Source: Heterodontus francisci
Taxonomy: Eukaryota
Reading direction: 5' to 3'
Assembly (NCBI RefSeq): GCF_036365525.1
Contig: NC_090413.1
Location: forward strand, 29,554,266 to 29,618,265
Length of the DNA: 64,000 nt
The notes beneath the pieces are model-generated. The model saw nothing but the letters and a program-made list of their open reading frames with translations. It was not told the origin of the DNA and searched no databases. A program made the position numbers and the translations under genes. This document shows, piece by piece, positions 1 through 36,845 of the stretch. Position 1 is the first letter of the stretch. Each line of letters begins with the position of its first letter.

Positions 1-129
1 TCTTGGATTAGTTTTTTATCTCTCCTGTGCTTTACTACACTAATGCTGGGATTAGTTTTGTATCTCTCCTGTGCTGTACTACACTAATTCTGGGATTAGT
101 TTTGTATCTCTCCTGTGCTGTACTACACT

Positions 130-3077
130 CAGCATGATAGAGCCTCCCTCAAATGGCTCGGAACGCATACTGTCCATCCGACTGCTCACCACCTCTGGTC
201 CAGTACAGCATCTATGCTCCAACACTCTGTTCCGCACCTGAAGCTAAAGACCAGTTCTATGAACAACTCCATAACATCATTAGCAGCATCCCCAACACCG
301 AACACCTATTCCTGCTGGGGGACTTTAATGCCAGGGTTGGGGCCGACCATGACTCATGGCCCTCCTGCCTTGGGCGCTATGGCGTTGGAAGGATGAATGA
401 GAACGGGCAGAGACTGCTTGAGTTGTGTACCTATCATAACCTCTGCATCACCAACTCGTTCTTTCACACTAAACCCTGTCACCAGGTTTCATGGAGGCAC
501 CCAAGATCACGTCGTTGGCACCAGCTAGACCTCATTGTCACAAGGCGAGCCGCCTTAAACAGTGTTCAAATCACACGCAGCTTCCACAGTGCGGACTGCG
601 ACACCGACCACTCCCTGGTGTGCAGCAAGGTTAGACTCAGACCAAAGAAGTTGCATCATTCCAAGCAGAAGGGCCACCCGCGCATCAACACGAGCAGAAT
701 TTCTCACCCACAGCTGTTACAAAAATTTCAAAATTCACTTGTAACAGCCCTTCAAAACACTCCCACAGGGGATGCTGAGACCAAGTGGGCCCACATCAGA
801 GACGCCATCTATGAGTCAGCTTTGACCACCTACGGCAAAAGTGCGAAGAGAAATGCAGACTGGTTTCAATCTCATAATGAAGAGCTGGAACCTGTCATAG
901 CCGCTAAGCGCATTGCACTTTTGAACTACAAGAAAGCCCCCAGCGATTTAACATCCGCAGCACTTAAAGCAGCCAGAAGTACTGCACAAAGAACAGCTAG
1001 GCGTTGCGCAAACGACTACTGGCAACACCTATGCAGTCATATTCAGCTGGCCTCAGACACCGGAAACATCAGAGGAATGTATGATGGCATGAAGAGAGCT
1101 CTTGGGCCAACCATCAAGAAGATCACCCCCCTCAAATCTAAATCGGGGGACATAATCACTGACCAACGCAAACAGATGGACCGCTGGGTTGAGCACTACC
1201 TAGAACTGTACTCCAGGGAGAATGCTGTCACTGAGACTGCCCTCAATGCAGCCCAGCCTCTACCAGTCATGGATGAGCTGGACATACAGCCAACCAAATC
1301 GGAACTCAGTGATGCCATTGATTCCCTAGCCAGCGGAAAAGCCCCTGGGAAGGACAGCATTACCCCTGAAATAATCAAGAGTGCCAAGCCTGCTATACTC
1401 TCAGCACTACATGAACTGCTATGCCTGTGCTGGGACGAGGGAGCAGTACCCCAGGACATGCGCGATGCCAACATCATCACCCTCTATAAAAACAAAGGTG
1501 ACCGCGGTGACTGCAACAACTACCGTGGAATCTCCCTGCTCAGCATAGTGGGGAAAGTCTTTGCTCGAGTCGCTCTGAACAGGCTCCAGAAGCTGGCCGA
1601 GCGCGTCTACCCTGAGGCACAGTGTGGCTTTCGTGCAGAGAGATCGACTATTGACATGCTGTTCTCCCTTCGTCAGATACAGGAGAAATGCCGTGAACAA
1701 CAGATGCCCCTCTACATTGCTTTCATTGATCTCACCAAAGCCTTTGACCTCGTCAGCAGACGTGGTCTCTTCAGACTACTAGAAAAGATCGGATGTCCAC
1801 CAAAGCTACTAAGTATCATCACCTCATTCCATGACAATATGAAAGGCACAATTCAACATGGTGGCTCCTCATCAGAGCCCTTTCCTATCCTGAGTGGTGT
1901 GAAACAGGGCTGTGTTCTCGCACCCACACTTTTTGGGATTTTCTTCTCCCTGCTGCTTTCACATGCGTTCAAATCCTCTGAAGAAGGAATTTTCCTCCAC
2001 ACAAGATCAGGGGGCAGGTTGTTCAACCTTGCCCGTCTAAGAGCGAAGTCCAAAGTACGGAAAGTCCTCATCAGAGAACTCCTCTTTGCTGACGATGCTG
2101 CTTTAACATCTCACACTGAAGAATGCCTGCAGAGTCTCATCGACAGGTTTGCGTCTGCCTGCAATGAATTTGGCCTAACCATCAGCCTCAAGAAAACGAA
2201 CATCATGGGGCAGGATGTCAGAAATGCTCCATCCATCAATATTGGCGACCACGCTCTGGAAGTGGTTCAAGAGTTCACCTACCTAGGCTCAACTATCACC
2301 AGTAACCTGTCTCTAGATGCAGAAATCAACAAGCGCATGGGTAAGGCTTCCACTGCTATGTTCAGACTGGCCAAGAGAGTGTGGGAAAATGGCGCACTGA
2401 CACGGAACACAAAAGTCCGAGTGTATCAGGCCTGTGTCCTCAGTACCTTGCTCTACGGCAGCGAGGCCTGGACAACGTATGCCAGCCAAGAGCGACGTCT
2501 CAATTCATTCCATCTTCGCTGCCTTCGGAGAATACTTGGCATCAGGTGGCAGGACTATATCTCCAACACAGAAGTCCTTGAAGCGGCCAACATCCCCAGC
2601 TTATACACACTACTGAGTCAGCGGCGCTTGAGATGGCTTGGCCATGTGAGCCGCATGGAAGATGGCAGGATCCCCAAAGACACATTGTACAGCGAGCTCG
2701 CCACTGGTATCAGACCCACCGGCCGTCCATGTCTCCGTTATAAAGACGTCTGCAAACGCGACATGAAATCGTGTGACATTGATCACAAGTCGTGGGAGTC
2801 AGTTGCCAGCATTCGCCAGAGCTGGCGGGCAGCCATAAAGACAGGGCTAAATTGTGGCGAGTCGAAGAGACTTAGTAGTTGGCAGGAAAAAAGACAGAGG
2901 CGCAAGGGGAGAGCCAACTGTGCAACAGCCCCAACAAACAAATTTCTCTGCAGCACCTGTGGAAGAGCCTGTCACTCCAGAATTGGCCTTTATAGCCACT
3001 CCAGGCGCTGCTTCACAAACCACTGACCACCTCCAGGCGCGTATCCATTGTCTCTCGAGATAAGGAGGCCCAAAAGA
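130..3077 (+). mobile_element. RTE-clade non-LTR retrotransposon (BovB-like), 5'-truncated, copy 1
   Basis: Single ORF with APE endonuclease motifs (IYAPT, GDFNA, LDLI, TDH), RT motifs (QCGFR, GVKQGCVLAP, LFADD, YLG) and a C-terminal CxxC...HxxxC finger. Short 3' UTR ends ...GGCCCAAAAGA. 8-bp TSD ACTACACT at 122-129 and 3078-3085. Confidence 0.93.
153..3026 (+). CDS. RTE LINE endonuclease/reverse transcriptase ORF (957 aa; the first ~18 aa are probably out of frame with the ancestral ORF)
   Basis: ORF track shows an uninterrupted EN-RT-Zn finger frame. The N-terminal APE motifs (WNV/QET) are missing because of 5' truncation. Confidence 0.85.
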   Translation: MARNAYCPSDCSPPLVQYSIYAPTLCSAPEAKDQFYEQLHNIISSIPNTEHLFLLGDFNARVGADHDSWPSCLGRYGVGRMNENGQRLLELCTYHNLCITNSFFHTKPCHQVSWRHPRSRRWHQLDLIVTRRAALNSVQITRSFHSADCDTDHSLVCSKVRLRPKKLHHSKQKGHPRINTSRISHPQLLQKFQNSLVTALQNTPTGDAETKWAHIRDAIYESALTTYGKSAKRNADWFQSHNEELEPVIAAKRIALLNYKKAPSDLTSAALKAARSTAQRTARRCANDYWQHLCSHIQLASDTGNIRGMYDGMKRALGPTIKKITPLKSKSGDIITDQRKQMDRWVEHYLELYSRENAVTETALNAAQPLPVMDELDIQPTKSELSDAIDSLASGKAPGKDSITPEIIKSAKPAILSALHELLCLCWDEGAVPQDMRDANIITLYKNKGDRGDCNNYRGISLLSIVGKVFARVALNRLQKLAERVYPEAQCGFRAERSTIDMLFSLRQIQEKCREQQMPLYIAFIDLTKAFDLVSRRGLFRLLEKIGCPPKLLSIITSFHDNMKGTIQHGGSSSEPFPILSGVKQGCVLAPTLFGIFFSLLLSHAFKSSEEGIFLHTRSGGRLFNLARLRAKSKVRKVLIRELLFADDAALTSHTEECLQSLIDRFASACNEFGLTISLKKTNIMGQDVRNAPSINIGDHALEVVQEFTYLGSTITSNLSLDAEINKRMGKASTAMFRLAKRVWENGALTRNTKVRVYQACVLSTLLYGSEAWTTYASQERRLNSFHLRCLRRILGIRWQDYISNTEVLEAANIPSLYTLLSQRRLRWLGHVSRMEDGRIPKDTLYSELATGIRPTGRPCLRYKDVCKRDMKSCDIDHKSWESVASIRQSWRAAIKTGLNCGESKRLSSWQEKRQRRKGRANCATAPTNKFLCSTCGRACHSRIGLYSHSRRCFTNH

Positions 3078-6065
3078 ACTACACTAATTCTTGGATTGGT
3101 TTTGTATCTCTCCTGTTCTTTACTACACTAATTCTTGGATTAGTTTTGTATCTCTCCTGTGCTGTACTACACTAATTCTTGGATTAGTTTTGTATCTCTC
3201 ATGTGCTGTACTACACTAATTCTTGGATTAGTTTTGTATCTCTCCTGTGCTGTACTACACGAATTCTTGGATTAGTTTTGTATCTCTCCTGTGCTGTACT
3301 ACACTAATTCTGGGATTAGTTTTGTATCTCTCCTGTGCTTTACTACACTAATTCTGGGATTAGTTTTGTATCTCTCATGTGCTGTACTACACTAATTCTG
3401 GGATTAGTTTTGTATCTCTCCTGTGGTTTACTACACTAATTCTGGGATTAGTTTTGTATCTCTCCTGTGCTTTACTACACTAATTCTGGGATTAGTTTTG
3501 TATCTCTCGTGCTGTACTACACTAATTCTTGGATTAGTTTTGTATCTCTCATGTGCTGTACTACACTAATTCTGGGATTAGTTTTGTATCTCTCCTGTGG
3601 TTTACTACACTAATTCTGGGATTAGTTTTGTATCTCTCCTGTGCTGTACTACACTAATTCTTGGATTAGTTTTGTATCTCTCATGTGCTGTACTACACTA
3701 ATTCTGGGATTAGTTTTGTATCTCTCCTGTGCTTTACTACACTAATTCTGGGATTAGTTTTGTATCTCTCGTGCTGTACTACACTAATTCTTGGATTAGT
3801 TTTGTATCTCTCCTGTGGTTTACTACACTAATTCTGGGATTAGTTTTGTATCTCTCCTGTGCTTTACTACACTAATTCTGGGATTAGTTTTGTATCTCTC
3901 CTGTGCTTTACTACACTAATTCTGGGATTAGTTTTGTATCTCTCATGTGCTGTACTACACTAATTCTGGGATTAGTTTTGTATCTCTCGTGCTGTACTAC
4001 ACTAATTCTGGGATTAGTTTTGTGTATCTCATGTGCTGTACTACACTAATTCTGGGATTAGTTTTGTATCTCTCATGTGCTGTACTACACTAATTCTTGG
4101 ATTAGTTTTGTATCTCTCCTGTGCTTTACTACACTAATTCTGGGATTAGTTTTGTATCTCTCCTGTGCTTTACTACACTAATTCTGGGATTAGTTTTGTA
4201 TCTCTCCTGTGCTTTACTACACTAATTCTGGGATTAGTTTTGTATCTCTCGTGCTGTACTACACTAATTCTGGGATTAGTTTTGTTTCTTTCCTGTGCTT
4301 TACTACACTAATTCTGGGATTAGTTTTGTATCTCTCCTGTGCTTTACTATACTAATTCTGGGATTAGTTTTGTATCTCTCGTGCTGTACTACACTAATTC
4401 TTGGATTAGTTTTGTATCTCTCCTGTGCTGTACTGCACTAATTCTTGGATTAGTTTTGTATCTCTCCTGTGCTTTACTACACTAATTCTGGGATTAGTTT
4501 TGTATCTCTCCTGTGCTGTACTGCACTAATTCTTGGATTAGTTTTGTATCTCTCCTGTGCTGTACGACACTAATTCTGGGATTAGTTTTGTATCTCTCCT
4601 GTGCTGTACTGCACTAATTCTTGGATTAGTTTTGTATGTCTCCTGTGCTTTACGACACTAATTCTTGGATTAGTTTTGTATCTCTCCTGTGCTTTACGAC
4701 ACTAATTCTTGGATTAGTTTTGTATCTCTCCTGTGCTGTACTACACTCATTGTGGGATTAGTTTTGTATCTCTCCTGTGCTTTACGACACTAATTCTTGG
4801 ATTAGTTTTGTATCTCTCCTGTGCTTTACGACACTAATTCTTGGATTAGTTTTGTATCTCTCCTGTGCTGTACTACACTCATTGTGGGATTAGTTTTGTA
4901 TCTCTCCTGTGCTTTACGACACTAATTCTTGGATTAGTTTTGTATCTCTCCTGTGCTGTACTACACTAATTGTGGGATTAGTTTTGTATCTCTCCTGTGC
5001 TGTACTACACTAATTCTTGGATTAGTTTTGTTTCTCTCCTGTGCTGTACTACACTAATTCTTGGATTAGTTTTGTTTCTCTCCTGTGCTTTACGACACTA
5101 ATTCTTGGATTAGTTTTGTTTCTCTCCTGTGCTGTACTACACTAATTCTGGGATTAGTTTTGTATCTCTCCTGTGCTGTACTACACTAATTCTGGGATTA
5201 GTTTTGTATCTCTCCTGTGCTGTACTACACTATTTCTGGGATTAGTTTTGTATCTTTCCTGTGCTGTACTACACTATTTCTGGGATTAGTTTTGTATCTC
5301 TCCTGTGCTGTACTGCACTAATTCTGGGATTAGTTTTGTATCTCTCGTGCTGTACTACACGAATTCTGGGATTAGTTTTGTATCTCTCCTGTGCTGTACG
5401 ACACTAATTCTTGGATTAGTTTTGTATCTCTCCTGTGCTTTACTGCACTAATTCTTGGATTAGTTTTGAATCTCTCCCGTGCTGTACTACACTAATTCTG
5501 GGATCAGTTTTGTATCTCTCCTGTGCTTTACTACACTAATTCTTGGATTAGTTTTGTATCTCTCCTGTGCTTTACTACACTAATGCTGGGATTAGTTTTG
5601 TATCTCTCCTGTGCTGTACTACACTAATTCTTGGATTGGTTTTGTATCTCTCCTGTTCTTTACTACACTAATTCTTGGATTAGTTTTGTATCTCTCCTGT
5701 GCTGTACTACACTAATTCTTGGATTAGTTTTGTATCTCTCATGTGCTGTACTACACTAATTCTTGGATTAGTTTTGTATCTCTCCTGTGCTGTACTACAC
5801 TAATTCTTGGATTAGTTTTGTATCTCTCCTGTGCTGTACTACACTAATTCTGGGATTAGTTTTGTATCTCTCCTGTGCTTTACTACACTAATTCTGGGAT
5901 TAGTTTTGTTTCTCTCATGTGCTGTACTACACTAATTCTTGGATTAGTTTTTTATCTCTCCTGTGCTTTACTACACTAATGCTGGGATTAGTTTTGTATC
6001 TCTCCTGTGCTGTACTACACTAATTCTGGGATTAGTTTTGTATCTCTCCTGTGCTGTACTACACT

Positions 6066-9013
6066 CAGCATGATAGAGCCTCCCTCAAATGGCTCGGAAC
6101 GCATACTGTCCATCCGACTGCTCACCACCTCTGGTCCAGTACAGCATCTATGCTCCAACACTCTGTTCCGCACCTGAAGCTAAAGACCAGTTCTATGAAC
6201 AACTCCATAACATCATTAGCAGCATCCCCAACACCGAACACCTATTCCTGCTGGGGGACTTTAATGCCAGGGTTGGGGCCGACCATGACTCATGGCCCTC
6301 CTGCCTTGGGCGCTATGGCGTTGGAAGGATGAATGAGAACGGGCAGAGACTGCTTGAGTTGTGTACCTATCATAACCTCTGCATCACCAACTCGTTCTTT
6401 CACACTAAACCCTGTCACCAGGTTTCATGGAGGCACCCAAGATCACGTCGTTGGCACCAGCTAGACCTCATTGTCACAAGGCGAGCCGCCTTAAACAGTG
6501 TTCAAATCACACGCAGCTTCCACAGTGCGGACTGCGACACCGACCACTCCCTGGTGTGCAGCAAGGTTAGACTCAGACCAAAGAAGTTGCATCATTCCAA
6601 GCAGAAGGGCCACCCGCGCATCAACACGAGCAGAATTTCTCACCCACAGCTGTTACAAAAATTTCAAAATTCACTTGTAACAGCCCTTCAAAACACTCCC
6701 ACAGGGGATGCTGAGACCAAGTGGGCCCACATCAGAGACGCCATCTATGAGTCAGCTTTGACCACCTACGGCAAAAGTGCGAAGAGAAATGCAGACTGGT
6801 TTCAATCTCATAATGAAGAGCTGGAACCTGTCATAGCCGCTAAGCGCATTGCACTTTTGAACTACAAGAAAGCCCCCAGCGATTTAACATCCGCAGCACT
6901 TAAAGCAGCCAGAAGTACTGCACAAAGAACAGCTAGGCGTTGCGCAAACGACTACTGGCAACACCTATGCAGTCATATTCAGCTGGCCTCAGACACCGGA
7001 AACATCAGAGGAATGTATGATGGCATGAAGAGAGCTCTTGGGCCAACCATCAAGAAGATCACCCCCCTCAAATCTAAATCGGGGGACATAATCACTGACC
7101 AACGCAAACAGATGGACCGCTGGGTTGAGCACTACCTAGAACTGTACTCCAGGGAGAATGCTGTCACTGAGACTGCCCTCAATGCAGCCCAGCCTCTACC
7201 AGTCATGGATGAGCTGGACATACAGCCAACCAAATCGGAACTCAGTGATGCCATTGATTCCCTAGCCAGCGGAAAAGCCCCTGGGAAGGACAGCATTACC
7301 CCTGAAATAATCAAGAGTGCCAAGCCTGCTATACTCTCAGCACTACATGAACTGCTATGCCTGTGCTGGGACGAGGGAGCAGTACCCCAGGACATGCGCG
7401 ATGCCAACATCATCACCCTCTATAAAAACAAAGGTGACCGCGGTGACTGCAACAACTACCGTGGAATCTCCCTGCTCAGCATAGTGGGGAAAGTCTTTGC
7501 TCGAGTCGCTCTGAACAGGCTCCAGAAGCTGGCCGAGCGCGTCTACCCTGAGGCACAGTGTGGCTTTCGTGCAGAGAGATCGACTATTGACATGCTGTTC
7601 TCCCTTCGTCAGATACAGGAGAAATGCCGTGAACAACAGATGCCCCTCTACATTGCTTTCATTGATCTCACCAAAGCCTTTGACCTCGTCAGCAGACGTG
7701 GTCTCTTCAGACTACTAGAAAAGATCGGATGTCCACCAAAGCTACTAAGTATCATCACCTCATTCCATGACAATATGAAAGGCACAATTCAACATGGTGG
7801 CTCCTCATCAGAGCCCTTTCCTATCCTGAGTGGTGTGAAACAGGGCTGTGTTCTCGCACCCACACTTTTTGGGATTTTCTTCTCCCTGCTGCTTTCACAT
7901 GCGTTCAAATCCTCTGAAGAAGGAATTTTCCTCCACACAAGATCAGGGGGCAGGTTGTTCAACCTTGCCCGTCTAAGAGCGAAGTCCAAAGTACGGAAAG
8001 TCCTCATCAGAGAACTCCTCTTTGCTGACGATGCTGCTTTAACATCTCACACTGAAGAATGCCTGCAGAGTCTCATCGACAGGTTTGCGTCTGCCTGCAA
8101 TGAATTTGGCCTAACCATCAGCCTCAAGAAAACGAACATCATGGGGCAGGATGTCAGAAATGCTCCATCCATCAATATTGGCGACCACGCTCTGGAAGTG
8201 GTTCAAGAGTTCACCTACCTAGGCTCAACTATCACCAGTAACCTGTCTCTAGATGCAGAAATCAACAAGCGCATGGGTAAGGCTTCCACTGCTATGTTCA
8301 GACTGGCCAAGAGAGTGTGGGAAAATGGCGCACTGACACGGAACACAAAAGTCCGAGTGTATCAGGCCTGTGTCCTCAGTACCTTGCTCTACGGCAGCGA
8401 GGCCTGGACAACGTATGCCAGCCAAGAGCGACGTCTCAATTCATTCCATCTTCGCTGCCTTCGGAGAATACTTGGCATCAGGTGGCAGGACTATATCTCC
8501 AACACAGAAGTCCTTGAAGCGGCCAACATCCCCAGCTTATACACACTACTGAGTCAGCGGCGCTTGAGATGGCTTGGCCATGTGAGCCGCATGGAAGATG
8601 GCAGGATCCCCAAAGACACATTGTACAGCGAGCTCGCCACTGGTATCAGACCCACCGGCCGTCCATGTCTCCGTTATAAAGACGTCTGCAAACGCGACAT
8701 GAAATCGTGTGACATTGATCACAAGTCGTGGGAGTCAGTTGCCAGCATTCGCCAGAGCTGGCGGGCAGCCATAAAGACAGGGCTAAATTGTGGCGAGTCG
8801 AAGAGACTTAGTAGTTGGCAGGAAAAAAGACAGAGGCGCAAGGGGAGAGCCAACTGTGCAACAGCCCCAACAAACAAATTTCTCTGCAGCACCTGTGGAA
8901 GAGCCTGTCACTCCAGAATTGGCCTTTATAGCCACTCCAGGCGCTGCTTCACAAACCACTGACCACCTCCAGGCGCGTATCCATTGTCTCTCGAGATAAG
9001 GAGGCCCAAAAGA
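6066..9013 (+). mobile_element. RTE-clade non-LTR retrotransposon, copy 2 (duplicate of 130-3077, offset 5936)
   Basis: Identical translation, same truncation point, same TSD ACTACACT at 6058-6065 and 9014-9021, same flanking satellite variants. Confidence 0.93.
6089..8962 (+). CDS. RTE LINE endonuclease/reverse transcriptase ORF, copy 2 (957 aa)
   Basis: Protein identical to 153..3026 in the ORF track. Confidence 0.85.
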   Translation: MARNAYCPSDCSPPLVQYSIYAPTLCSAPEAKDQFYEQLHNIISSIPNTEHLFLLGDFNARVGADHDSWPSCLGRYGVGRMNENGQRLLELCTYHNLCITNSFFHTKPCHQVSWRHPRSRRWHQLDLIVTRRAALNSVQITRSFHSADCDTDHSLVCSKVRLRPKKLHHSKQKGHPRINTSRISHPQLLQKFQNSLVTALQNTPTGDAETKWAHIRDAIYESALTTYGKSAKRNADWFQSHNEELEPVIAAKRIALLNYKKAPSDLTSAALKAARSTAQRTARRCANDYWQHLCSHIQLASDTGNIRGMYDGMKRALGPTIKKITPLKSKSGDIITDQRKQMDRWVEHYLELYSRENAVTETALNAAQPLPVMDELDIQPTKSELSDAIDSLASGKAPGKDSITPEIIKSAKPAILSALHELLCLCWDEGAVPQDMRDANIITLYKNKGDRGDCNNYRGISLLSIVGKVFARVALNRLQKLAERVYPEAQCGFRAERSTIDMLFSLRQIQEKCREQQMPLYIAFIDLTKAFDLVSRRGLFRLLEKIGCPPKLLSIITSFHDNMKGTIQHGGSSSEPFPILSGVKQGCVLAPTLFGIFFSLLLSHAFKSSEEGIFLHTRSGGRLFNLARLRAKSKVRKVLIRELLFADDAALTSHTEECLQSLIDRFASACNEFGLTISLKKTNIMGQDVRNAPSINIGDHALEVVQEFTYLGSTITSNLSLDAEINKRMGKASTAMFRLAKRVWENGALTRNTKVRVYQACVLSTLLYGSEAWTTYASQERRLNSFHLRCLRRILGIRWQDYISNTEVLEAANIPSLYTLLSQRRLRWLGHVSRMEDGRIPKDTLYSELATGIRPTGRPCLRYKDVCKRDMKSCDIDHKSWESVASIRQSWRAAIKTGLNCGESKRLSSWQEKRQRRKGRANCATAPTNKFLCSTCGRACHSRIGLYSHSRRCFTNH

Positions 9014-12000
9014 ACTACACTAATTCTTGGATTGGTTTTGTATCTCTCCTGTTCTTTACTACACTAATTCTTGGATTAGTTTTGTATCTCTCCTGTGCTG
9101 TACTACACTAATTCTTGGATTAGTTTTGTATCTCTCATGTGCTGTACTACACTAATTCTTGGATTAGTTTTGTATCTCTCCTGTGCTGTACTACACGAAT
9201 TCTTGGATTAGTTTTGTATCTCTCCTGTGCTGTACTACACTAATTCTGGGATTAGTTTTGTATCTCTCCTGTGCTTTACTACACTAATTCTGGGATTAGT
9301 TTTGTATCTCTCATGTGCTGTACTACACTAATTCTGGGATTAGTTTTGTATCTCTCCTGTGGTTTACTACACTAATTCTGGGATTAGTTTTGTATCTCTC
9401 CTGTGCTTTACTACACTAATTCTGGGATTAGTTTTGTATCTCTCGTGCTGTACTACACTAATTCTTGGATTAGTTTTGTATCTCTCATGTGCTGTACTAC
9501 ACTAATTCTGGGATTAGTTTTGTATCTCTCCTGTGGTTTACTACACTAATTCTGGGATTAGTTTTGTATCTCTCCTGTGCTGTACTACACTAATTCTTGG
9601 ATTAGTTTTGTATCTCTCATGTGCTGTACTACACTAATTCTGGGATTAGTTTTGTATCTCTCCTGTGCTTTACTACACTAATTCTGGGATTAGTTTTGTA
9701 TCTCTCGTGCTGTACTACACTAATTCTTGGATTAGTTTTGTATCTCTCCTGTGGTTTACTACACTAATTCTGGGATTAGTTTTGTATCTCTCCTGTGCTT
9801 TACTACACTAATTCTGGGATTAGTTTTGTATCTCTCATGTGCTGTACTACACTAATTCTGGGATTAGTTTTGTATCTCTCGTGCTGTACTACACTAATTC
9901 TGGGATTAGTTTTGTGTATCTCATGTGCTGTACTACACTAATTCTGGGATTAGTTTTGTATCTCTCATGTGCTGTACTACACTAATTCTTGGATTAGTTT
10001 TGTATCTCTCCTGTGCTTTACTACACTAATTCTGGGATTAGTTTTGTATCTCTCCTGTGCTTTACTACACTAATTCTGGGATTAGTTTTGTATCTCTCCT
10101 GTGCTTTACTACACTAATTCTGGGATTAGTTTTGTATCTCTCGTGCTGTACTACACTAATTCTGGGATTAGTTTTGTTTCTTTCCTGTGCTTTACTACAC
10201 TAATTCTGGGATTAGTTTTGTATCTCTCCTGTGCTTTACTATACTAATTCTGGGATTAGTTTTGTATCTCTCGTGCTGTACTACACTAATTCTTGGATTA
10301 GTTTTGTATCTCTCCTGTGCTGTACTGCACTAATTCTTGGATTAGTTTTGTATCTCTCCTGTGCTTTACTACACTAATTCTGGGATTAGTTTTGTATCTC
10401 TCCTGTGCTGTACTGCACTAATTCTTGGATTAGTTTTGTATCTCTCCTGTGCTGTACGACACTAATTCTGGGATTAGTTTTGTATCTCTCCTGTGCTGTA
10501 CTGCACTAATTCTGGGATTAGTTTTGTATCTCTCCTGTGCTGTATTACACTAATTCTGGGATTAGTTTTGTATCTCTCCTGTGCTTTACGACACTAATTC
10601 TGGGATTAGTTTTGTATCTCTCCTGTGCTGTACTACACTAATTCTGGGATTGGTTTTGTATCTCTCCTGTGCTGTACTACACTAATTCTTGGATTGGTTT
10701 TGTATCTCTCCTGTTCTTTACTACACTAATTCTTGGATTAGTTTTGTATCTCTCCTGTGCTGTACTACACTAATTCTTGGATTAGTTTTGTATCTCTCCT
10801 GTGCTGTACTACACTAATTCTTGGATTAGTTTTGTATCTCTCATGTGCTGTACTACACTAATTCTTGGATTAGTTTTGTATCTCTCCTGTGCTGTACTAC
10901 ACTCATTCTTGGATTAGTTTTGTATCTCTCCTGTGCTTTACTACACTAATTCTGGGATTAGTTTTGTATCTCTCCTGTGCTTTACTACACTAATTCTGGG
11001 ATTAGTTTTGTATCTCTCCTGTGCTTTACTACACTAATTCTGGGATTAGTTTTGTATCTCTCCTGTGCTTTACTACACTAATTCTGGGATTAGTTTTGTA
11101 TCTCTCCTGTGCTTTACTACACTAATTCTGGGATTAGTTTTGTATCTCTCCTGTGCTTTACTACACTAATTCTGGGATTAGTTTTGTATCTCTCCTGTGC
11201 TTTACTACACTAATTCTGGGATTAGTTTTGTATCTCTCCTGTGCTTTACTACACTAATTCTGGGATTAGTTTTGTATCTCTCGTGCAGTACTACACTAAT
11301 TCTTGGATTAGTTTTGTATCTCTCCTGTGCTTTACTACACTAATTCTGGGATTAGTTTTGTTTCTTTCCTGTGCTTTACTACACTAATTCTGGGATTAGT
11401 TTTGTATCTCTCCTGTGCTGTACTACACTAATTCTGGGATTAGTTTTGTGTCTCTCCTGTGCTGTACTACACTAATTCTGGGATTAGTTTTGTATCTCTC
11501 GTGCTGTGCTACACTAATTCTTGGATTAGTTTTGTATCTCTCCTGTGCTTTACTACACTAATTCTGGGATTAGTTTTGTATCTCTCGTGCTGTACTACAC
11601 TAATTCTTGGATTAGTTTTGTATCTCTCCTGTGCTTTACTACACTAATTCTGGGATTAGTTTTGTTTCTTTCCTGTGCTTTACTACACTAATTCTGGGAT
11701 TAGTTTTGTATCTCTCCTGTGCTTTACTACACTAATTCTGGGATTAGTTTTGTATCTCTCCTGTGCTTTACTACACTAATTCTGGGATTAGTTTTGTATC
11801 TCTCGTGCTGTACTACACTAATTCTGGGATTAGTTTTGTTTCTTTCCTGTGCTTTACTACACTAATTCTGGGATTAGTTTTGTATCTCTCCTGTGCTTTA
11901 CTATACTAATTCTGGGATTAGTTTTGTATCTCTCGTGCTGTACTACACTAATTCTTGGATTAGTTTTGTATCTCTCCTGTGCTGTACTGCACTAATTCTT

Positions 12001-15000
12001 GGATTAGTTTTGTATCTCTCCTGTGCTTTACTACACTAATTCTGGGATTAGTTTTGTATCTCTCCTGTGCTGTACTGCACTAATTCTTGGATTAGTTTTG
12101 TATCTCTCCTGTGCTGTACGACACTAATTCTGGGATTAGTTTTGTATCTCTCCTGTGCTGTGCTGCACTAATTCTGGGATTAGTTTTGTATCTCTCCTGT
12201 GCTGTATTACACTAATTCTGGGATTAGTTTTGTATCTCTCCTGTGCTTTACGACACTAATTCTGGGATTAGTTTTGTATCTCTCCTGTGCTGTACTACAC
12301 TAATTCTGGGATTAGTTTTGTATCTCTCCTGTGCTGTACTACACTAATTCTTGGATTAGTTTTGTATCTCTCCTGTGCTGTACGACACTAATTCTGGGAT
12401 TAGTTTTGTATCTCTCCTGTGCTGTACTACACTAATTGTGGGATTAGTTTTGTATCTCTCCTGTGCTGTACTACACTAATTCTGGGATTAGTTTTGTATC
12501 TCTCCTGTGCTGTACTACACTAATTCTGGGATTAGTTTTGTATCTCTCCTGTGCTGTACTACACTATTTCTGGGATTAGTTTTGTATCTCTCCTGTGCTG
12601 TACTGCACTAATTCTGGGATTAGTTTTGTATCTCTCCTGTGCTGTACTACACTAATTCTGGGATTAGTTTTGTATCTCTCCTGTGCTGTACTACACGAAT
12701 TCTGGGATTAGTTTTGTATCTCTCCTGTGCTGTACTACACTAATTCTGGGATTAGTTTTGTATCTCTCCTGTGCTGTACTGCACTAATTCTTGGATTAGC
12801 TTTGTTTCTCTCCTGTGCTGAACGACACTAATTCTGGGATTAGTTTTGTATCTCTCCTGTGCTGTACTGCACTAATTCTGGGATTAGTTTTGTTTCTCTC
12901 CTGTGCTGTACTACACCAATTCTGGGATTAGTTTTGTTTCTATCCTGTGCTGTACTACACCAATTCTGGGATTAGTTTTGTTTCTCTCCTGTGCTGAACG
13001 ACACTAATTCTGGGATTAGTTTTGTATCTCTCCTGTGCTGAACGACACTAATTCTGGGATTAGTTTTGTTTCTCTCCTGTGCTGAACGACACTAATTCTT
13101 GGATTAGTTTTGTATCTCTCCTGTGCTTTACTACACTAATTCTTGGATTAGTTTTGTATCTCTCATGTGCTTTACTACACTAATTCTTGGATTAGTTTTG
13201 TATCTCTCCTGTGCTGTACTACACTAATTCTGGGATTAGTTTTGTATCTCTCCTGTGCTGCACTACACTAATTCTTGGATTAGTTTTGTATCTCTCCTGT
13301 GCTGTCCGACACTAATTCTGGGCTTAGTTTTGTATCTCTCCTGTGCTGTACTCCACTAATTCTGGGATTAGTTTTGTATCTCTCCTGTGCTTTCCGACAC
13401 TAATTCTGGGCTTAGTTTTGTATCTCTCCTGTGCTGTACTACACTAATTCTGGGATTAGTTTTGTATCTCTCCTGTGCTGTCCGACACTAATTCTGGGCT
13501 TAGTTTTGTATCTCTCCTGTGCTGTACTACACTAATTCTGGGATTAGTTTTGTATCTCTCCTGTGCTGTCCGACACTAATTCTGGGCTTAGTTTTGTATC
13601 TCTCCTGTGCTGAACGACACTAATTCTGGGATTAGTTTTGTTTCTCTCCTGTGCTGAACGACACTAATTCTTGGATTAGTTTTGTATCTCTCCTGTGCTG
13701 TACTACACTAATTCTGGGATTAGTTTTGTATCTCTCCTGTGCTGTACTACACTAATTCTGGGATTAGTTTTGTATCTCTCCTGTGCTTTACTACACTAAT
13801 TCTGGGATTAGTTTTGTATCTCTCCTGTGCTGTACGACACTAATTCTTGGATTAGTTTTGTATCTCTCATGTGCTGTACTACACTAATGCTGGGATTAGT
13901 TTTGTATCTCTCCTGTGCTGTACGACACTAATTCTTGGATTAGTTTTGTATCTCTCCTGTGCTTTACTACACTAATTCTGGGATTAGTTTTGTATCTCTC
14001 CTGTGCTTTAGTACACTAATTCTGGGATTAGTTTTGTATCTCTCCTGTGCTTTACTACACTAATTCTTGGATTAGTTTTGTTTCTCTCCTGTGCTTTACT
14101 ACACTAATTCTGGGATTAGTTTTGTATCTCTCCTGTGCTTTACTACACTAATTCTTGGATTAGTTTTGTATCTCTCCTGTGCTCTACTACACTAATTCTT
14201 GGATTAGTTTTGTATCTCTCCTGTGCTGTACTACACTAATTCTGGGATTAGTTTTGTATCTCTCCTGTGCTGTACGACACTAATTCCGGGCTTAGTTTTG
14301 TATCTCTCCTGTGCTTTACTACACTAATTCTGGGATTAGTTTTGTATCTCTCCTGTGCTGTACTACACTAATTCTGGGCTTAGTTTTGTATCTCTCCTGT
14401 GCTGTACTACACTAATACTGGGATTAGTTTTGTATCTCTCCTGTGCTGTACTACACTAATTCTGGGATTAGTTTTGTTTCTCTCCTGTGCTGTACTACAC
14501 TAATTCTTGGATTAGTTTTGTTTCTCTCCTGTGCTGTACTACACTAATTCTGGGATTAGTTTTGTTTCTCTCCTGTGCTGTACTACCCTAATTCTTGGAT
14601 TAGTTTTGTTTCTCTCCTGTGCTGTACTACACTAATTCTTGGATTAGTTTTGTATCTCTCCTGTGCTGTACTACACTAATTCTTGGATTAGTTTTGTATC
14701 TCTCCTGTGCTGTACTACACTAATTCTTGGATTAGTTTTGTTTCTCTCCTGTGCTGTACTACACTAATTCTTGGATTAGTTTTGTATCTCTCCTGTGCTT
14801 TACTACACTAATTCTTGGATTAGTTTTGTATCTCTCCTGTGCTGTACTACACTAATTCTTGGATTAGTTTTGTATCTCTCCTGTGCTTTACTACACTAAT
14901 TCTGGGATTAGTTTTGTTTCTCTCCTGTGCTGTACTACACTAATTCTTGGATTAGTTTTGTATCTCTCCTGTGCTTTACTACACTAATTCTTGGATTAGT

Positions 15001-18000
15001 TTTGTATTTCTCCTGTGCTTTACTACACTAATTCTTGGATTAGTTTTGTATCTCTCCTGTGCTTTACTACACTAATTCTGGGATTAGTTTTGTTTCTTTC
15101 CTGTGCTTTACTACACTAATTCTGGGATTAGTTTTGTATCTCTCCTGTGCTTTACTACACTAATTCTGGGATTAGTTTTGTATCTCTCCTGTGCTTTACT
15201 ACACTAATTCTGGGATTAGTTTTGTATCTCTCGTGCTGTACTACACTAATTCTGGGATTAGTTTTGTTTCTTTCCTGTGCTTTACTACACTAATTCTGGG
15301 ATTAGTTTTGTATCTCTCCTGTGCTTTACTATACTAATTCTGGGATTAGTTTTGTATCTCTCGTGCTGTACTACACTAATTCTTGGATTAGTTTTGTATC
15401 TCTCCTGTGCTGTACTGCACTAATTCTTGGATTAGTTTTGTATCTCTCCTGTGCTGTACTGCACTAATTCTTGGATTAGTTTTGTATCTCTCCTGTGCTG
15501 TACGACACTAATTCTGGGATTAGTTTTGTATCTCTCCTGTGCTGTGCTGCACTAATTCTGGGATTAGTTTTGTATCTCTCCTGTGCTGTATTACACTAAT
15601 TCTGGGATTAGTTTTGTATCTCTCCTGTGCTTTACGACACTAATTCTGGGATTAGTTTTGTATCTCTCCTGTGCTGTACTACACTAATTCTGGGATTAGT
15701 TTTGTATCTCTCCTGTGCTGTACTACACTAATTCTTGGATTAGTTTTGTATCTCTCCTGTGCTGTACGACACTAATTCTGGGATTAGTTTTGTATCTCTC
15801 CTGTGCTGTACTACACTAATTCTGGGATTAGTTTTGTATCTCTCCTGTGCTGTACTACACTAATTCTGGGATTAGTTTTGTATCTCTCCTGTGCTGTACT
15901 ACACTAATTCTGGGATTAGTTTTGTATCTCTCCTGTGCTGTACTACACTATTTCTGGGATTAGTTTTGTATCTCTCCTGTGCTGTACTGCACTAATTCTG
16001 GGATTAGTTTTGTATCTCTCCTGTGCTGTACTACACTAATTCTGGGATTAGTTTTGTATCTCTCCTGTGCTGTACTACACGAATTCTGGGATTAGTTTTG
16101 TATCTCTCCTGTGCTGTACTACACTAATTCTGGGATTAGTTTTGTATCTCTCCTGTGCTGTACTGCACTAATTCTTGGATTAGCTTTGTTTCTCTCCTGT
16201 GCTGAACGACACTAATTCTGGGATTAGTTTTGTATCTCTCCTGTGCTGTACTGCACTAATTCTGGGATTAGTTTTGTTTCTCTCCTGTGCTGTACTACAC
16301 CAATTCTGGGATTAGTTTTGTTTCTCTCCTGTGCTGTACTACACTAATTCTGGGATTAGTTTTGTTTCTCTCCTGTGCTGAACGACACTAATTCTGGGAT
16401 TAGTTTTGTATCTCTCCTGTGCTGAACGACACTAATTCTTGGATTAGTTTTGTATCTCTCCTGTGCTTTACTACACTAATTCTTGGATTAGTTTTGTATC
16501 TCTCATGTGCTTTAATACACTAATTCTTGGATTAGTTTTGTATCTCTCCTGTGCTGTACTACACTAATTCTGGGATTAGTTTTGTATCTCTCCTGTGCTG
16601 CACTACACTAATTCTTGGATTAGTTTTGTATCTCTCCTGTGCTGTCCGACACTAATTCTGGGCTTAGTTTTGTATCTCTCCTGTGCTGTACTCCACTAAT
16701 TCTGGGATTAGTTTTGTATCTCTCCTGTGCTTTCCGACACTAATTCTGGGCTTAGTTTTGTATCTCTCCTGTGCTGTACTACACTAATTCTGGGATTAGT
16801 TTTGTATCTCTCCTGTGCTATCCGACACTAATTCTGGGATTAGTTTTGTATCTCTCCTGTGCTGTACTACACTAATTCTGGGATTAGTTTTGTATCTCTC
16901 CTGTGCTGTCCGACACTAATTCTGGGCTTAGTTTTGTATCTCTCCTGTGCTGTACTACACTAATTCTGGGATTAGTTTTGTATCTCTCCTGTGCTGTACT
17001 ACACTAATTCTGGGATTAGTTTTGTATCTCTCCTGTGCTGTACTACACTAATTCTTGGATTAGTTTTGTATCTCTCCTGTGCTTTACTACACTAATTCTG
17101 GGATTAGTTTTGTTTCTCTCCTGTGCTGTACTACACTAATTCTTGGATTAGTTTTGTATCTCTCCTGTGCTTTACTACACTAATTCTTGGATTAGTTTTG
17201 TATTTCTCCTGTGCTTTACTACACTAATTCTTGGATTAGTTTTGTATCTCTCCTGTGCTTTACTACACTAATTCTGGGATTAGTTTTGTTTCTTTCCTGT
17301 GCTTTACTACACTAATTCTGGGATTAGTTTTGTATCTCTCCTGTGCTTTACTACACTAATTCTGGGATTAGTTTTGTATCTCTCCTGTGCTTTACTACAC
17401 TAATTCTGGGATTAGTTTTGTATCTCTCGTGCTGTACTACACTAATTCTGGGATTAGTTTTGTTTCTTTCCTGTGCTTTACTACACTAATTCTGGGATTA
17501 GTTTTGTATCTCTCCTGTGCTTTACTATACTAATTCTGGGATTAGTTTTGTATCTCTCGTGCTGTACTACACTAATTCTTGGATTAGTTTTGTATCTCTC
17601 CTGTGCTGTACTGCACTAATTCTTGGATTAGTTTTGTATCTCTCCTGTGCTTTACTACACTAATTCTGGGATTAGTTTTGTATCTCTCCTGTGCTGTACT
17701 GCACTAATTCTTGGATTAGTTTTGTATCTCTCCTGTGCTGTACGACACTAATTCTGGGATTAGTTTTGTATCTCTCCTGTGCTGTGCTGCACTAATTCTG
17801 GGATTAGTTTTGTATCTCTCCTGTGCTGTATTACACTAATTCTGGGATTAGTTTTGTATCTCTCCTGTGCTTTACGACACTAATTCTGGGATTAGTTTTG
17901 TATCTCTCCTGTGCTGTACTACACTAATTCTGGGATTAGTTTTGTATCTCTCCTATGCTGTACTACACTAATTCTTGGATTAGTTTTGTATCTCTCCTGT

Positions 18001-21000
18001 GCTGTACGACACTAATTCTGGGATTAGTTTTGTATCTCTCCTGTGCTGTACTACACTAATTCTGGGATTAGTTTTGTATCTCTCCTGTGCTGTACTACAC
18101 TAATTCTGGGATTAGTTTTGTATCTCTCCTGTGCTGTACTACACTAATTCTGGGATTAGTTTTGTATCTCTCCTGTGCTGTACTACACTATTTCTGGGAT
18201 TAGTTTTGTATCTCTCCTGTGCTGTACTGCACTAATTCTGGGATTAGTTTTGTATCTCTCCTGTGCTGTACTACACTAATTCTGGGATTAGTTTTGTATC
18301 TCTCCTGTGCTGTACTACACGAATTCTGGGATTAGTTTTGTATCTCTCCTGTGCTGTACTACACTAATTCTGGGATTAGTTTTGTATCTCTCCTGTGCTG
18401 TACTGCACTAATTCTTGGATTAGCTTTGTTTCTCTCCTGTGCTGAACGACACTAATTCTGGGATTAGTTTTGTATCTCTCCTGTGCTGTACTGCACTAAT
18501 TCTGGGATTAGTTTTGTTTCTCTCCTGTGCTGTACTACACCAATTCTGGGATTAGTTTTGTTTCTCTCCTGTGCTGTACTACACTAATTCTGGGATTAGT
18601 TTTGTTTCTCTCCTGTGCTGAACGACACTAATTCTGGGATTAGTTTTGTATCTCTCCTGTGCTGAACGACACTAATTCTGGGATTAGTTTTGTTTCTCTC
18701 CTGTGCTGAACGACACTAATTCTTGGATTAGTTTTGTATCTCTCCTGTGCTTTACTACACTAATTCTTGGATTAGTTTTGTATCTCTCATGTGCTTTAAT
18801 ACACTAATTCTTGGATTAGTTTTGTATCTCTCCTGTGCTGTACTACACTAATTCTGGGATTAGTTTTGTATCTCTCCTGTGCTGCACTACACTAATTCTT
18901 GGATTAGTTTTGTATCTCTCCTGTGCTGTCCGACACTAATTCTGGGCTTAGTTTTGTATCTCTCCTGTGCTGTACTCCACTAATTCTGGGATTAGTTTTG
19001 TATCTCTCCTGTGCTTTCCGACACTAATTCTGGGCTTAGTTTTGTATCTCTCCTGTGCTGTACTACACTAATTCTGGGATTAGTTTTGTATCTCTCCTGT
19101 GCTATCCGACACTAATTCTGGGATTAGTTTTGTATCTCTCCTGTGCTGTACTACACTAATTCTGGGATTAGTTTTGTATCTCTCCTGTGCTGTCCGACAC
19201 TAATTCTGGGCTTAGTTTTGTATCTCTCCTGTGCTGTACTACACTAATTCTGGGATTAGTTTTGTATCTCTCCTGTGCTGTACTACACTAATTCTGGGAT
19301 TAGTTTTGTATCTCTCCTGTGCTGTACTACACTAATTCTGGGATTAGTTTTGTATCTCTCCTGTGCTGTACTACACTAATTCTGGGATTAGTTTTGTATC
19401 TCTCCTGTGCTTTACTACACTAATTCTGGGATTAGTTTTGTATCTCTCCTGTGCTGTACGACACTAATTCTTGGATTAGTTTTGTATCTCTCCTGTGCTG
19501 TACTACACTAATGCTGGGACTAGTTTTGTATCTCTCCTGTGCTGTACGACACTAATTCTTGGATTAGTTTTGTATCTCTCCTGTGCTTTACTACACTAAT
19601 TCTGGGATTAGTTTTGTATCTCTCCTGTGCTTTAGTACACTAATTCTGGGATTAGTTTTGTATCTCTCCTGTGCTTTACTACACTAATTCTTGGATTAGT
19701 TTTGTTTCTCTCCTGTGCTTTACTACACTAATTCTGGGATTAGTTTTGTATCTCTCCTGTGCTTTACTACACTAATTCTTGGATTAGTTTTGTATCTCTC
19801 CTGTGCTCTACTACACTAATTCTTGGATTAGTTTTGTATCTCTCCTGTGCTGTACTACACTAATTCTGGGATTAGTTTTGTATCTCTCCTGTGCTGTACG
19901 ACACTAATTCCGGGCTTAGTTTTGTATCTCTCCTGTGCTTTACTACACTAATTCTGGGATTAGTTTTGTATCTCTCCTGTGCTGTACTACACTAATTCTG
20001 GGCTTAGTTTTGTATCTCTCCTGTGCTGTACTACACTAATACTGGGATTAGTTTTGTATCTCTCCTGTGCTGTACTACACTAATTCTGGGATTAGTTTTG
20101 TTTCTCTCCTGTGCTGTACTACACTAATTCTTGGATTAGTTTTGTTTCTCTCCTGTGCTGTACTACACTAATTCTGGGATTAGTTTTGTTTCTCTCCTGT
20201 GCTGTACTACACTAATTCTTGGATTAGTTTTGTTTCTCTCCTGTGCTGTACTACACTAATTCTTGGATTAGTTTTGTATCTCTCCTGTGCTGTACTACAC
20301 TAATTCTTGGATTAGTTTTGTATCTCTCCTGTGCTGTACTACACTAATTCTTGGATTAGTTTTGTTTCTCTCCTGTGCTGTACTACACTAATTCTTGGAT
20401 TAGTTTTGTATCTCTCCTGTGCTTTACTACACTAATTCTTGGATTAGTTTTGTATCTCTCCTGTGCTGTACTACACTAATTCTTGGATTAGTTTTGTATC
20501 TCTCCTGTGCTTTACTACACTAATTCTGGGATTAGTTTTGTTTCTCTCCTGTGCTGTACTACACTAATTCTTGGATTAGTTTTGTATCTCTCCTGTGCTT
20601 TACTACACTAATTCTTGGATTAGTTTTGTATTTCTCCTGTGCTGTACTACACTAATTCTTGGATTAGTTTTGTATCTCTCCTGTGCTTTACTACACTAAT
20701 TCTTGGATTAGTTTTGTATCTCTCCTGTGCTTTACTACACTAATTCTTGGATTACTTTTGTATCTCTCCTGTGCTGTACTACACTAATTCTGGGATTAGT
20801 TTTGTATCTCTCCTGTGCTGTACTACACTAATTCTGGGATTAGTTTTGTATCTCTCCTGTGCTGTACTACACTAATTCTGGGATTAGTTTTGTATCTCTC
20901 ATGTGCTTTACTACACTAATTCTTGGATTAGTTTTGTATCTCTCCTGTGCTGTACTACAGTAATTCTGGGATTAGTTTTGTATCTCTCCTGTGCTTTACT

Positions 21001-24000
21001 ACACTAATTCTGGGATTAGTTTTGTATCTCTCCTGTGCTGTACTACACTAATTCTGGGATTAGTTTTGTATCTCTCCTGTGCTGTACTACAGTAATTCTG
21101 GGATTAGTTTTGTATCTCTCCTGTGCTGTACTACACTATTTCTTGGATTAGTTTTGTATCTCTCCTGTGCTGTACTACACTAATTCTTGGATTAGTTTTG
21201 TATCTCTCCTGTGCTGTACTACACTAATTCTTGGATTAGTTTTGTATCTCTCCTGTGCTGTACTACACTAATTCTTGGATTAGTTTTGTTTCTCTCCTGT
21301 GCTGTACTACACTAATTCTTGGATTAGTTTTGTATCTCTCCTGTGCTGTACTACACTAATTCTTGGATTAGTTTTGTATCTCTCCTGTGCTGTACTACAC
21401 TAATTCTTGGATTAGTTTTGTTTCTCTCCTGTGCTGTACTACACTAATTCTTGGATTAGTTTTGTATCTCTCCTGTGCTGTACTACACTAATTCTGGGAT
21501 TAGTTTTGTATCTCTCCTGTGCTGTACTACACTAATTCTGGGATTAGTTTTGTATCTCTCCTGTGCTGTACTACACTAATTCTGGGATTAGTTTTGTATC
21601 TCTCCTGTGCTGTACTACACTAATTCTGGGATTAGTTTTGTATCTCTCCTGTGCTGTACTACACTAATTCTTGGATTAGTTTTGTTTCTCTCCTGTGCTG
21701 TACTACACTAATTCTTGGATTAGTTTTGTTTCTCTCCTGTGCTGTGCTACACTAATTCTTGGATTAGTTTTGTATCTCTCCTGTGCTGTACTACACTAAT
21801 TCTTGGATTAGTTTTGTATCTCTCCTGTGCTGTACTACACTAATTCTTGGATTAGTTTTGTTTCTCTCCTGTGCTGTACTACACTAATTCTTGGATTAGT
21901 TTTGTATCTCTCCTGTGCTTTACTACACTAATTCTTGGATTAGTTTTGTATCTCTCCTGTGCTGTACTACACTAATTCTTGGATTAGTTTTGTATCTCTC
22001 CTGTGCTTTACTACACTAATTCTGGGATTAGTTTTGTTTCTCTCCTGTGCTGTACTACACTAATTCTTGGATTAGTTTTGTATCTCTCCTGTGCTTTACT
22101 ACACTAATTCTTGGATTAGTTTTGTATTTCTCCTGTGCTGTACTACACTAATTCTTGGATTAGTTTTGTATCTCTCCTGTGCTTTACTACACTAATTCTT
22201 GGATTAGTTTTGTATCTCTCCTGTGCTTTACTACACTAATTCTTGGATTACTTTTGTATCTCTCCTGTGCTGTACTACACTAATTCTGGGATTAGTTTTG
22301 TATCTCTCCTGTGCTGTACTACACTAATTCTGGGATTAGTTTTGTATCTCTCCTGTGCTGTACTACACTAATTCTGGGATTAGTTTTGTATCTCTCATGT
22401 GCTTTACTACACTAATTCTTGGATTAGTTTTGTATCTCTCCTGTGCTGTACTACAGTAATTCTGGGATTAGTTTTGTATCTCTCCTGTGCTTTACTACAC
22501 TAATTCTGGGATTAGTTTTGTATCTCTCCTGTGCTGTACTACACTAATTCTGGGATTAGTTTTGTATCTCTCCTGTGCTGTACTACAGTAATTCTGGGAT
22601 TAGTTTTGTATCTCTCCTGTGCTGTACTACACTATTTCTTGGATTAGTTTTGTATCTCTCCTGTGCTGTACTACACTAATTCTTGGATTAGTTTTGTATC
22701 TCTCCTGTGCTGTACTACACTAATTCTTGGATTAGTTTTGTATCTCTCCTGTGCTGTACTACACTAATTCTTGGATTAGTTTTGTTTCTCTCCTGTGCTG
22801 TACTACACTAATTCTTGGATTAGTTTTGTATCTCTCCTGTGCTGTACTACACTAATTCTTGGATTAGTTTTGTATCTCTCCTGTGCTGTACTACACTAAT
22901 TCTTGGATTAGTTTTGTTTCTCTCCTGTGCTGTACTACACTAATTCTTGGATTAGTTTTGTATCTCTCCTGTGCTGTACTACACTAATTCTGGGATTAGT
23001 TTTGTATCTCTCCTGTGCTGTACTACACTAATTCTGGGATTAGTTTTGTATCTCTCCTGTGCTGTACTACACTAATTCTGGGATTAGTTTTGTATCTCTC
23101 CTGTGCTGTACTACACTAATTCTGGGATTAGTTTTGTATCTCTCCTGTGCTGTACTACACTAATTCTTGGATTAGTTTTGTTTCTCTCCTGTGCTGTACT
23201 ACACTAATTCTTGGATTAGTTTTGTTTCTCTCCTGTGCTGTGCTACACTAATTCTTGGATTAGTTTTGTATCTCTCCTGTGCTGTACTACACTAATTCTT
23301 GGATTAGTTTTGTTTCTCTCCTGTGCTGTACTACACTAATTCTGGGATTAGTTTTGTATCTCTCCTGTGCTGTGCTACACTAATTCTTGGATTAGTTTTG
23401 TATCTCTCCTGTGCTGTACCACACTAATTCTGGGATTAGTTTTGTTTCTCTCCTGTGCTGAACTACACTAATTCTTGGATTAGTTTTGTTTCTCTCCTGT
23501 GCTGTACTACACTAATTCTTGGATTAGTTTTGTTTCTCTCTTGTGCTGTATTACACTAATTCTGGGCTTAGTTTTGTATCTCTCCTGTGCTTTACTGCAC
23601 TAATTCTTGGATTAGTTTTGTATCTCTCCTGTGCTTTACTACACTAATTCTTGGATTAGTTTTGTATCTCTCCTGTGCTGTACTACACTAATTCTGGGAT
23701 TAGTTTTGTATCTCTCCTGTGCTGTACTGCACTAATTCTTGGATTAGTTTTGTATCTCTCCTGTGCTTTACTGCACTAATTCTTGGATTAGTTTTGTATC
23801 TCTCCTGTGCTGTACTGCACTAATTCTTGGATTAGTTTTGTATCTCTCCTGTGCTGTACTGCACTAATTCTTGGATTAGTTTTGTATCTCTCCTGTGCTT
23901 TACTACACTAATTCTGGGATTAGTTTTGTATCTCTCCTGTGCTGTACTACACTAATTCTTGGATTAGTTTTGTATCTCTCCTGTGCTGTACTACACTAAT

Positions 24001-36638: not shown

Positions 36639-36845
36639 CTTGGAGCAGCACGGCATTGTGGGATAGGTGCATGACTCAGACAACCTTTCGTGACCTCTAA
36701 CCCTTGAACCTGATCTATTTGCTGCAGGTTAATTCTTCAGCTTTTTCCTTGGGTGAAGATAAAATAGTTCATTTCCCCAGTGGAGGGATCCTCCCTTCAC
36801 CCCCTCCCCACGAAGGTAATTGAGGGGCGGCGGCGGGGGGGGGGG
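36630..36845 (-). promoter_or_regulatory. Putative ALKBH7 proximal promoter/5' UTR
   Basis: YY1-type CCGCCATCTT over the ATG, AP-1 TGACTCA at 36672-36678, GC box near 36824, CpG-rich exon 1. Confidence 0.4.

Follow-up and report, generated by a model that had tools for sequence, protein, structure and literature searches.

Two identical copies of an RTE-like LINE lie within a tandem array of 44-bp monomers in Heterodontus francisci, and the locus raises the question of whether the element inserted twice or whether a single insertion was later copied together with its host repeat. The stretch of DNA analysed in this study (the window) comprised 64,000 nucleotides (G000:C43:29,554,266-29,618,265); negative coordinates continue the window numbering upstream, with position 0 counted. 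As detailed below, one in-register unequal exchange very probably duplicated a 5.9-kb, LINE-carrying block of the 108-kb array.

The two LINE copies derive from one insertion

The two copies and their diagnostic features are as follows.

129-3077, plus strand: RTE-like LINE copy 1, 2,949 bp, 5′-truncated so that the family ORF starts at codon 96, with a 51-nt 3′ UTR
6065-9013, plus strand: RTE-like LINE copy 2, identical in sequence to copy 1
122-129, plus strand: target-site duplication ACTACACT, 5′ copy (twin at 6058-6065)
3078-3085, plus strand: target-site duplication ACTACACT, 3′ copy (twin at 9014-9021)
199-207, near 204, plus strand: private 8-nt deletion, which shifts the frame in comparison with the other members of the family (its twin lies near 6140)

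Both copies lie on the plus strand inside the array, and they are identical at all 2,949 of 2,949 bp. They also share the same 5′ truncation, the same target-site duplication and the same private 8-nt deletion. The length of the target-site duplication is given as 6-8 bp, since the outermost letters of ACTACACT could be the element's own. Moreover, when 28 letters spanning the private deletion were searched against the 6.0-Gb assembly, two matches were obtained, both at this locus, which is far more than chance would explain. Because the truncation, the target duplication and the private deletion are all common to both copies, the pair represents one insertion, most likely copied later at the DNA level.

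The original prediction, made from the letters of the window, had noted two copies with identical protein, 5′ truncation and target duplication, and the identity was found to extend to the DNA throughout the 2,949 bp. Its proposal of a single retrotransposition followed by duplication at the DNA level was supported, and a chimeric monomer was found at the breakpoint (described below). The same prediction spoke of an insertion "amplified" as a tandem repeat and allowed for further copies to the left of the window. The copy number is two, the private-deletion word being found twice genome-wide; no further copy of the element was found in the 159.8 kb upstream, which includes the remainder of the array, and the array as a whole carries exactly two.

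The duplicated units meet in a chimeric monomer

The boundaries of the duplicated units were established by comparing the two copies together with their flanks.

-1324 to 4611 (within the window, 1-4611), plus strand: duplicated unit 1, 5,936 bp
4612-10503, plus strand: duplicated unit 2, 5,892 bp; identity with the right flank of unit 1 continues to 10513
3837-3924, plus strand: two identical adjacent monomers (starts 3837 and 3881) where unit 2 has one, giving a 44-bp length difference
4579-4622, plus strand: chimeric 44-bp junction monomer, with the crossover within 4612-4621

Units 1 and 2 adjoin exactly, head to tail. Positions 1-3900 equal positions 5937-9836 exactly at an offset of 5,936; past the extra monomer, identity returns at an offset of 5,892 (3863-4621 versus 9755-10513, 759 bp). 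The left flanks agree in each successive monomer as far as -1324/4612, beyond which they are divergent. The flank shared around the LINE, compared monomer by monomer, amounts to 1.4 kb on the left and 1.5 kb on the right. The sharing of the left flank and that of the right flank both stop in the same monomer. In this junction monomer, position 33 shows the variant found in the 10471 monomer, and position 44 shows the one found in the -1357 monomer. Because the hybrid carries variants of both partner monomers, the exchange was located in 4612-4621. Four 31-mers in the junction monomer were unique within the 224 kb examined. The breakpoint sits in the host repeat, the periodicity of the array is preserved, and the exact overlap between the two sides of the junction is just 10 bp. 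Neither a tail, nor a new target duplication, nor a loss of period was found at 4579-4622.

Coordinates given in the original prediction proved correct within 1-2 bases, the shared flank reaching 4621/10513 (about 4620/10512 had been given), although its duplicated block began at window position 1 and the true start lies 1,324 bp upstream. The two units had further been said to differ by one 44-bp monomer, and the alignment placed the extra monomer in unit 1. That description holds inside the window, but not outside it: global alignment of the complete units revealed one 44-bp indel and, in addition, 10 in-register mismatches, all within -304 to -84. These 10 mismatches fit exactly a single tract of ~220-250 bp shifted by +44. 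Three other shift models were tried, and these were wrong at 11, 9 and 1 positions, respectively. Once both register events are counted, 0 point substitutions separate the units in ~5.9 kb.

Several sequence variants had been proposed as markers of the shared flanks. The ordered run of variants was unique, whereas several of the single markers recur in the array: the GGATTGG...TTCTTT monomer was counted 5 times, TAATGCTGGG 9 times and GTTTTTTATC 3 times. Two occurrences each were counted for GTGTATCTC and for the complete monomer at 5/5941.

Duplication is frequent in the host array

The array that carries the LINE pair extends well beyond the window on its left side.

-83,616 to 24,689: whole 44-bp array, 108.3 kb, ~2,300 monomers
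3078-6064, plus strand: array between the LINE copies, ~68 monomers
9014-24689, plus strand: right arm of the array, ~357 monomers

When a 34-letter monomer word was searched genome-wide, all 1,080 matches fell in the examined stretch around the locus (1,080 of 1,080). At this word stringency, the 44-bp array would be a single-locus array; it had been called a satellite, and the repeat behaves as a 108-kb array between genes at a single locus, not as a dispersed satellite family. With regard to the origin of the monomer, no match longer than 14 bp was found in ~115 kb of the surrounding non-array DNA.

Within the array, 53 exact matches of at least 500 bp were detected, the longest being 6,130 bp at an offset of 10,200 and lacking the LINE. 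Chaining yielded 10 duplicated blocks of at least 2 kb, 7 of them in tandem. The LINE block was third in size, behind two blocks of 10.1 and 7.2 kb that are both LINE-free. A 10.1-kb tandem duplication occupies -43,666 to -23,300 and includes the 6,130-bp exact match. Given that duplicated blocks of at least 3 kb cover 45% of the array outside the LINE block, the LINE was likely a passenger of array duplication. It should be borne in mind that this duplication and the background duplications were all read from one assembly, and that the background would share its errors.

The sole other insertion in the array is a 3′ fragment of ~1.1 kb (about -15,090 to -13,950), which we take from its motifs to be CR1-like; its (ATTCTA)n-type tail merges into the TAATTC of the monomer. 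This fragment is single-copy. An insertion in this array has a reasonable chance of being copied with it, and because the CR1-like fragment stayed single, passenger duplication (one of two insertions) is likely but not obligatory.

The element is predicted to be dead on arrival

The coding capacity of the window copies was compared with that of other members of the family.

141-3026, plus strand: 961-codon stop-to-stop frame (twin at 6077-8962), first ATG at 153

This frame opens with ~21 out-of-frame codons, which are followed by the C-terminal half of an endonuclease and then by a complete RT. Among the 9 other family copies fetched, the closest was an intact copy, L007 (G000:C35:31030500-31036500, minus strand), which is flanked by a TA run and is 99.6% identical to the window copy, differing from it by 3 substitutions and the 8-nt deletion. 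L007 has a single ORF of 1,063 aa with endonuclease (PF03372) and RT (PF00078); the ORF search covered the sequence downstream of its ~0.5-kb leader. The window copy starts at codon 96, 286 nt into this ORF; it has no 5′ UTR, and the first 95 codons are missing. Accordingly, PF03372 scored 18.8 bits in the window copy (profile 119-207) versus 45.7 in L007 (1-207), with a cut-off of 24.5, whereas the RT match (PF00078, 114 bits, profile 5-205) was unchanged. The window copy is also without the N-terminal endonuclease motifs WNV and LQET, to which we presumptively ascribe catalytic roles. When the endonuclease part of L007 was compared with the PDB, 0 matches were returned at E 0.1, and because of this the catalytic-residue labels remain our assumption.

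With no 5′ UTR, 95 endonuclease codons gone and a frameshift, the LINE copy is predicted to be unable to move by itself, that is, dead on arrival, despite its open RT frame. The open RT frame had been stressed in the original prediction; the RT domain is indeed open, but the description is misleading for an element with a codon-96 start, a frameshift and an endonuclease below the cut-off. The open frame reflects the youth of the copy (0.1% from the C35 copy).

As for classification, the anatomy typical of RTE elements, with an APE-type endonuclease and RT in a single ORF, was found in L007, and the 51-nt 3′ UTR ending in AAAAGA, the 5′ truncation and the 6-8-bp target duplication make up an RTE-type end. 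A cluster comparison of the element matched only unnamed EN+RT clusters. We presume its motifs to be those of RTE, and the element is termed "RTE-like" on the strength of its anatomy and of these motifs.

Other copies of the family

Automatic target-duplication calls were available for 6 other family copies; part of these were chance matches, and only the TA run of L007 was used. Ahead of its 5′ end, L007 contains an extra ~108-nt piece of its own endonuclease region, which ends within a few bases of the site of the 8-nt deletion in the window copy. The extra piece and the deletion, two cases only, could possibly reflect template jumping at a recurrent RNA break. An inverted part, resembling twin-priming inversions, was present in 3 of the 9 other family copies (L012, L013 and L014). 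L013 (C748) and L014 (C251) have both the inversion and its flanks in common, and they may be a single locus represented twice.

On G000:C5, four stretches (L026-L029) lie 0.2-3.2 Mb apart at 201.7-204.9 Mb. Throughout the 9 kb compared, their identity is 99.2-99.5%, and an older (88%) family copy is present in all 4 of 4, so that these stretches appear to form a young, multi-copy segmental duplication. Because the C5 blocks hold family copies in DNA that is 99.2-99.5% identical, passive copying of the family would have occurred there, too. Two further family matches lie on C5 at 206.45 and 205.99 Mb.

The array lies between genes

To the left of the array, ~31 kb away, lies a GTF2F1-like gene whose PF05793 matches end near -115 kb. 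The features to the right are as follows.

30141-30647, plus strand: last exon of a GDNF-family gene (PF00019), 5.5 kb right of the array
36198-36728, minus strand: ALKBH7-like exon
38331-40524: unrelated array, 91 copies of a 24-bp unit, without stops in three frames
41267-51754: unrelated array, another 44-bp unit, 239 copies
About 51850-51990, plus strand: WDR83-like first exon
57942-58958, minus strand: frame of 338 codons that matches RT weakly (E 0.001), beside a 200-N run (57714-57913)

From gene order, we take the GDNF-family exon to be persephin; the ALKBH7-like and WDR83-like names are likewise our presumptive assignments, and these exons, together with the upstream GTF2F1, presumably follow an order resembling that of human 19p13. 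The motifs of the frame at 57942-58958 are what we assume to be Penelope-like. The 44-bp array would thus lie between genes, whether in an intergenic position or in an untranslated intron, and the two unrelated arrays apparently lie within or between genes. In sharks, the short chromosomes are reported to have more GC, more genes and more tandem repeats (PMC10620051). The present region, where numerous unrelated arrays occur both inside the window and upstream of it, looks like such a chromosome.

Alternative origins of the tandem pair

An assembly artefact, in which two haplotypes with one LINE each were placed in tandem, is the alternative that best survives, and it is unlikely. The region is highly repetitive, and the units differ by monomer register and by no point substitution, as two alleles might. 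Against this, no N was found from -159.8 kb to 52,246, so that there is no gap between or near the units, and the 10-bp junction overlap would not suffice for two haplotypes to be joined by an exact-overlap assembler. Typical long reads exceed 5.9 kb, the length of the unit. Eight sequencing runs came into question, namely four contig-only runs of one sample that may be the source and four raw-read runs of other samples (1 capture, 3 RAD). Four of the eight were compared with 95-420; the ~2,300 contig pieces obtained were swamped by other family copies and monomers, and among the 16 listed none informs copy number or presence in other individuals. In two contig runs, the junction (4597-4652, at 100% identity) gave no match, nor did the common monomer words, so that this outcome carries no weight as evidence of absence. 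As reported in PMC9516828, false duplications most often show half depth and a gap between the duplicates. The gap-free sequence and the 10-bp overlap favour a real event, without proving it.

Far less probable is an RNA-mediated copy, for which the insertion and its flanks would have been transcribed and reinserted next door by the enzyme of another copy (transduction). The family is young and includes the member with a complete 1,063-aa ORF, but this origin is at odds with the structure of the junction, which is a clean in-register hybrid with no tail, new target duplication or truncation; landing exactly head to tail would also be required. Equally doubtful is the idea that the LINE itself promoted or benefited from the duplication, either through selfish amplification by array turnover or through selection for RT dosage. 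Both copies do keep an open RT frame that has an ATG at 153. The breakpoint, however, falls within the repeat, ~1.5 kb away from the element, and duplications of greater size are seen where the array carries no LINE. The element also lacks a 5′ UTR and retains half of the endonuclease, and its youth accounts for the open frame. Finally, the array offers ~2,300 near-identical target sites, and transposon dimers are known to arise through repeated insertion (PMC5932611). Two independent insertions into one and the same monomer position, by an element preferring this repeat, are nevertheless already refuted by the common private deletion, the common truncation and 0 differences in 2,949 bp, and by the 1.4-kb and 1.5-kb flanks common to both copies. 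No 44-bp-type repeat was found in the flanking sequence printed for the 9 other members of the family.

A model for the duplication and its meaning

Returning to unequal exchange as the preferred explanation, we propose that events took place in three steps. A recently active member of the family inserted once, with its 8-bp target duplication. Two monomers 5.9 kb apart (the one at -1357 and that at the site now numbered 10471), identical at 42 of 44 positions, would then have paired out of register, and exchange within the 10-bp window would have created the chimeric monomer 4579-4622. Here, the breakpoint was read directly, and the mechanism is what we infer from it; sister-chromatid crossover, homolog crossover and template switching during break repair cannot be told apart. 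Lastly, two monomer-register events would have set the units apart with no point substitution, namely the gain or loss of one monomer and the copying of one ~220-250-bp tract in unit 1 one monomer out of register. These events could have arisen after the duplication, or they could have been allelic differences.

Taken together, these data describe what looks like a real but ordinary passenger duplication of a predicted-dead LINE in a fast-turning tandem array, which is a known process. The locus reveals no new mechanism. It is, instead, a base-resolved record of passenger copying, in which the insertion site, the crossover window and the later register shifts are all readable, and it illustrates that identical LINE copies need not imply recent retrotransposition. 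Array turnover here amounts to two monomer-register events versus zero point mutations in 5.9 kb. A bolder reading, which we consider rather improbable, is that a LINE-plus-repeat macrosatellite is being born here, in gene-dense surroundings, and has so far reached two copies. Unit numbers in other individuals would then be 0, 1, 2 or many, and read-through transcription of the array could provide an RT without endonuclease from the ATG at 153. If this were true, the LINE would serve as a natural barcode with which to time the turnover of the array.

Comparison with known systems

As described for RTE-clade LINEs such as Bov-B (PMC13295347), endonuclease and RT are found in one ORF, and the short target duplication starts with A after a T. 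Unlike in that account of Bov-B, no T-stretch lies ~10 nt upstream of the target (the nearest is at ~20 nt), and there is no clear microsatellite tail.

The closest parallels reported are satellites with embedded elements (bioRxiv 10.64898/2026.09.17.752431). In the bPorHoc1.190 satellite of Porphyrio hochstetteri, 11 LINEs are stated to have been duplicated post-integration, and a satellite of Anoplius nigerrimus contains 5 Gypsy elements with identical TSDs. As in these cases, one integration followed by host recombination left copies on the same strand with identical target duplications and flanks, and the Porphyrio case shares with this locus a LINE in a vertebrate tandem array. In contrast to the 5-11 copies described there, the present locus has 2, and its crossover was mapped to 10 bp. 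Those arrays are centromeric, whereas here a 108-kb array occupies a single locus between genes; its gene neighbours, its size and its single locus would argue against a centromeric location.

R2 in Drosophila rDNA provides a second comparison. Among 386 R2 truncations reported (PMC3542110), 335 were single, 41 double, 9 triple and 1 quadruple, and the 51 of 386 present in at least two copies were duplicated by crossover. There, as here, a private 5′ truncation tags an insertion duplicated by crossovers, copy numbers are mostly low, and truncated copies are dead on arrival. R2 is, however, site-specific in a functional gene array, whereas the element described here is not site-specific and lies in an array without known function.

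Hybrid units at breakpoints have been described for CEN178 in Arabidopsis mutation-accumulation lines, where whole units were spontaneously duplicated in tandem (10.1101/2025.06.02.657473). Those insertions keep periodicity, copy neighbouring units and form hybrid units, as was found here; they differ in being centromeric, in having a 178-bp unit and in adding 1-31 units, and the part of that report concerned with the duplications mentions no transposon. Human composite repeats and macrosatellites likewise combine transposon and satellite units in tandem, likely through unequal crossing over (10.1101/2021.07.12.451456). They are defined there by at least 3 component repeats in arrayed units; with 2 components and 2 units, the pair of LINE and 44-bp repeat falls outside this definition, and human composite repeats stand as the many-copy end of the process.
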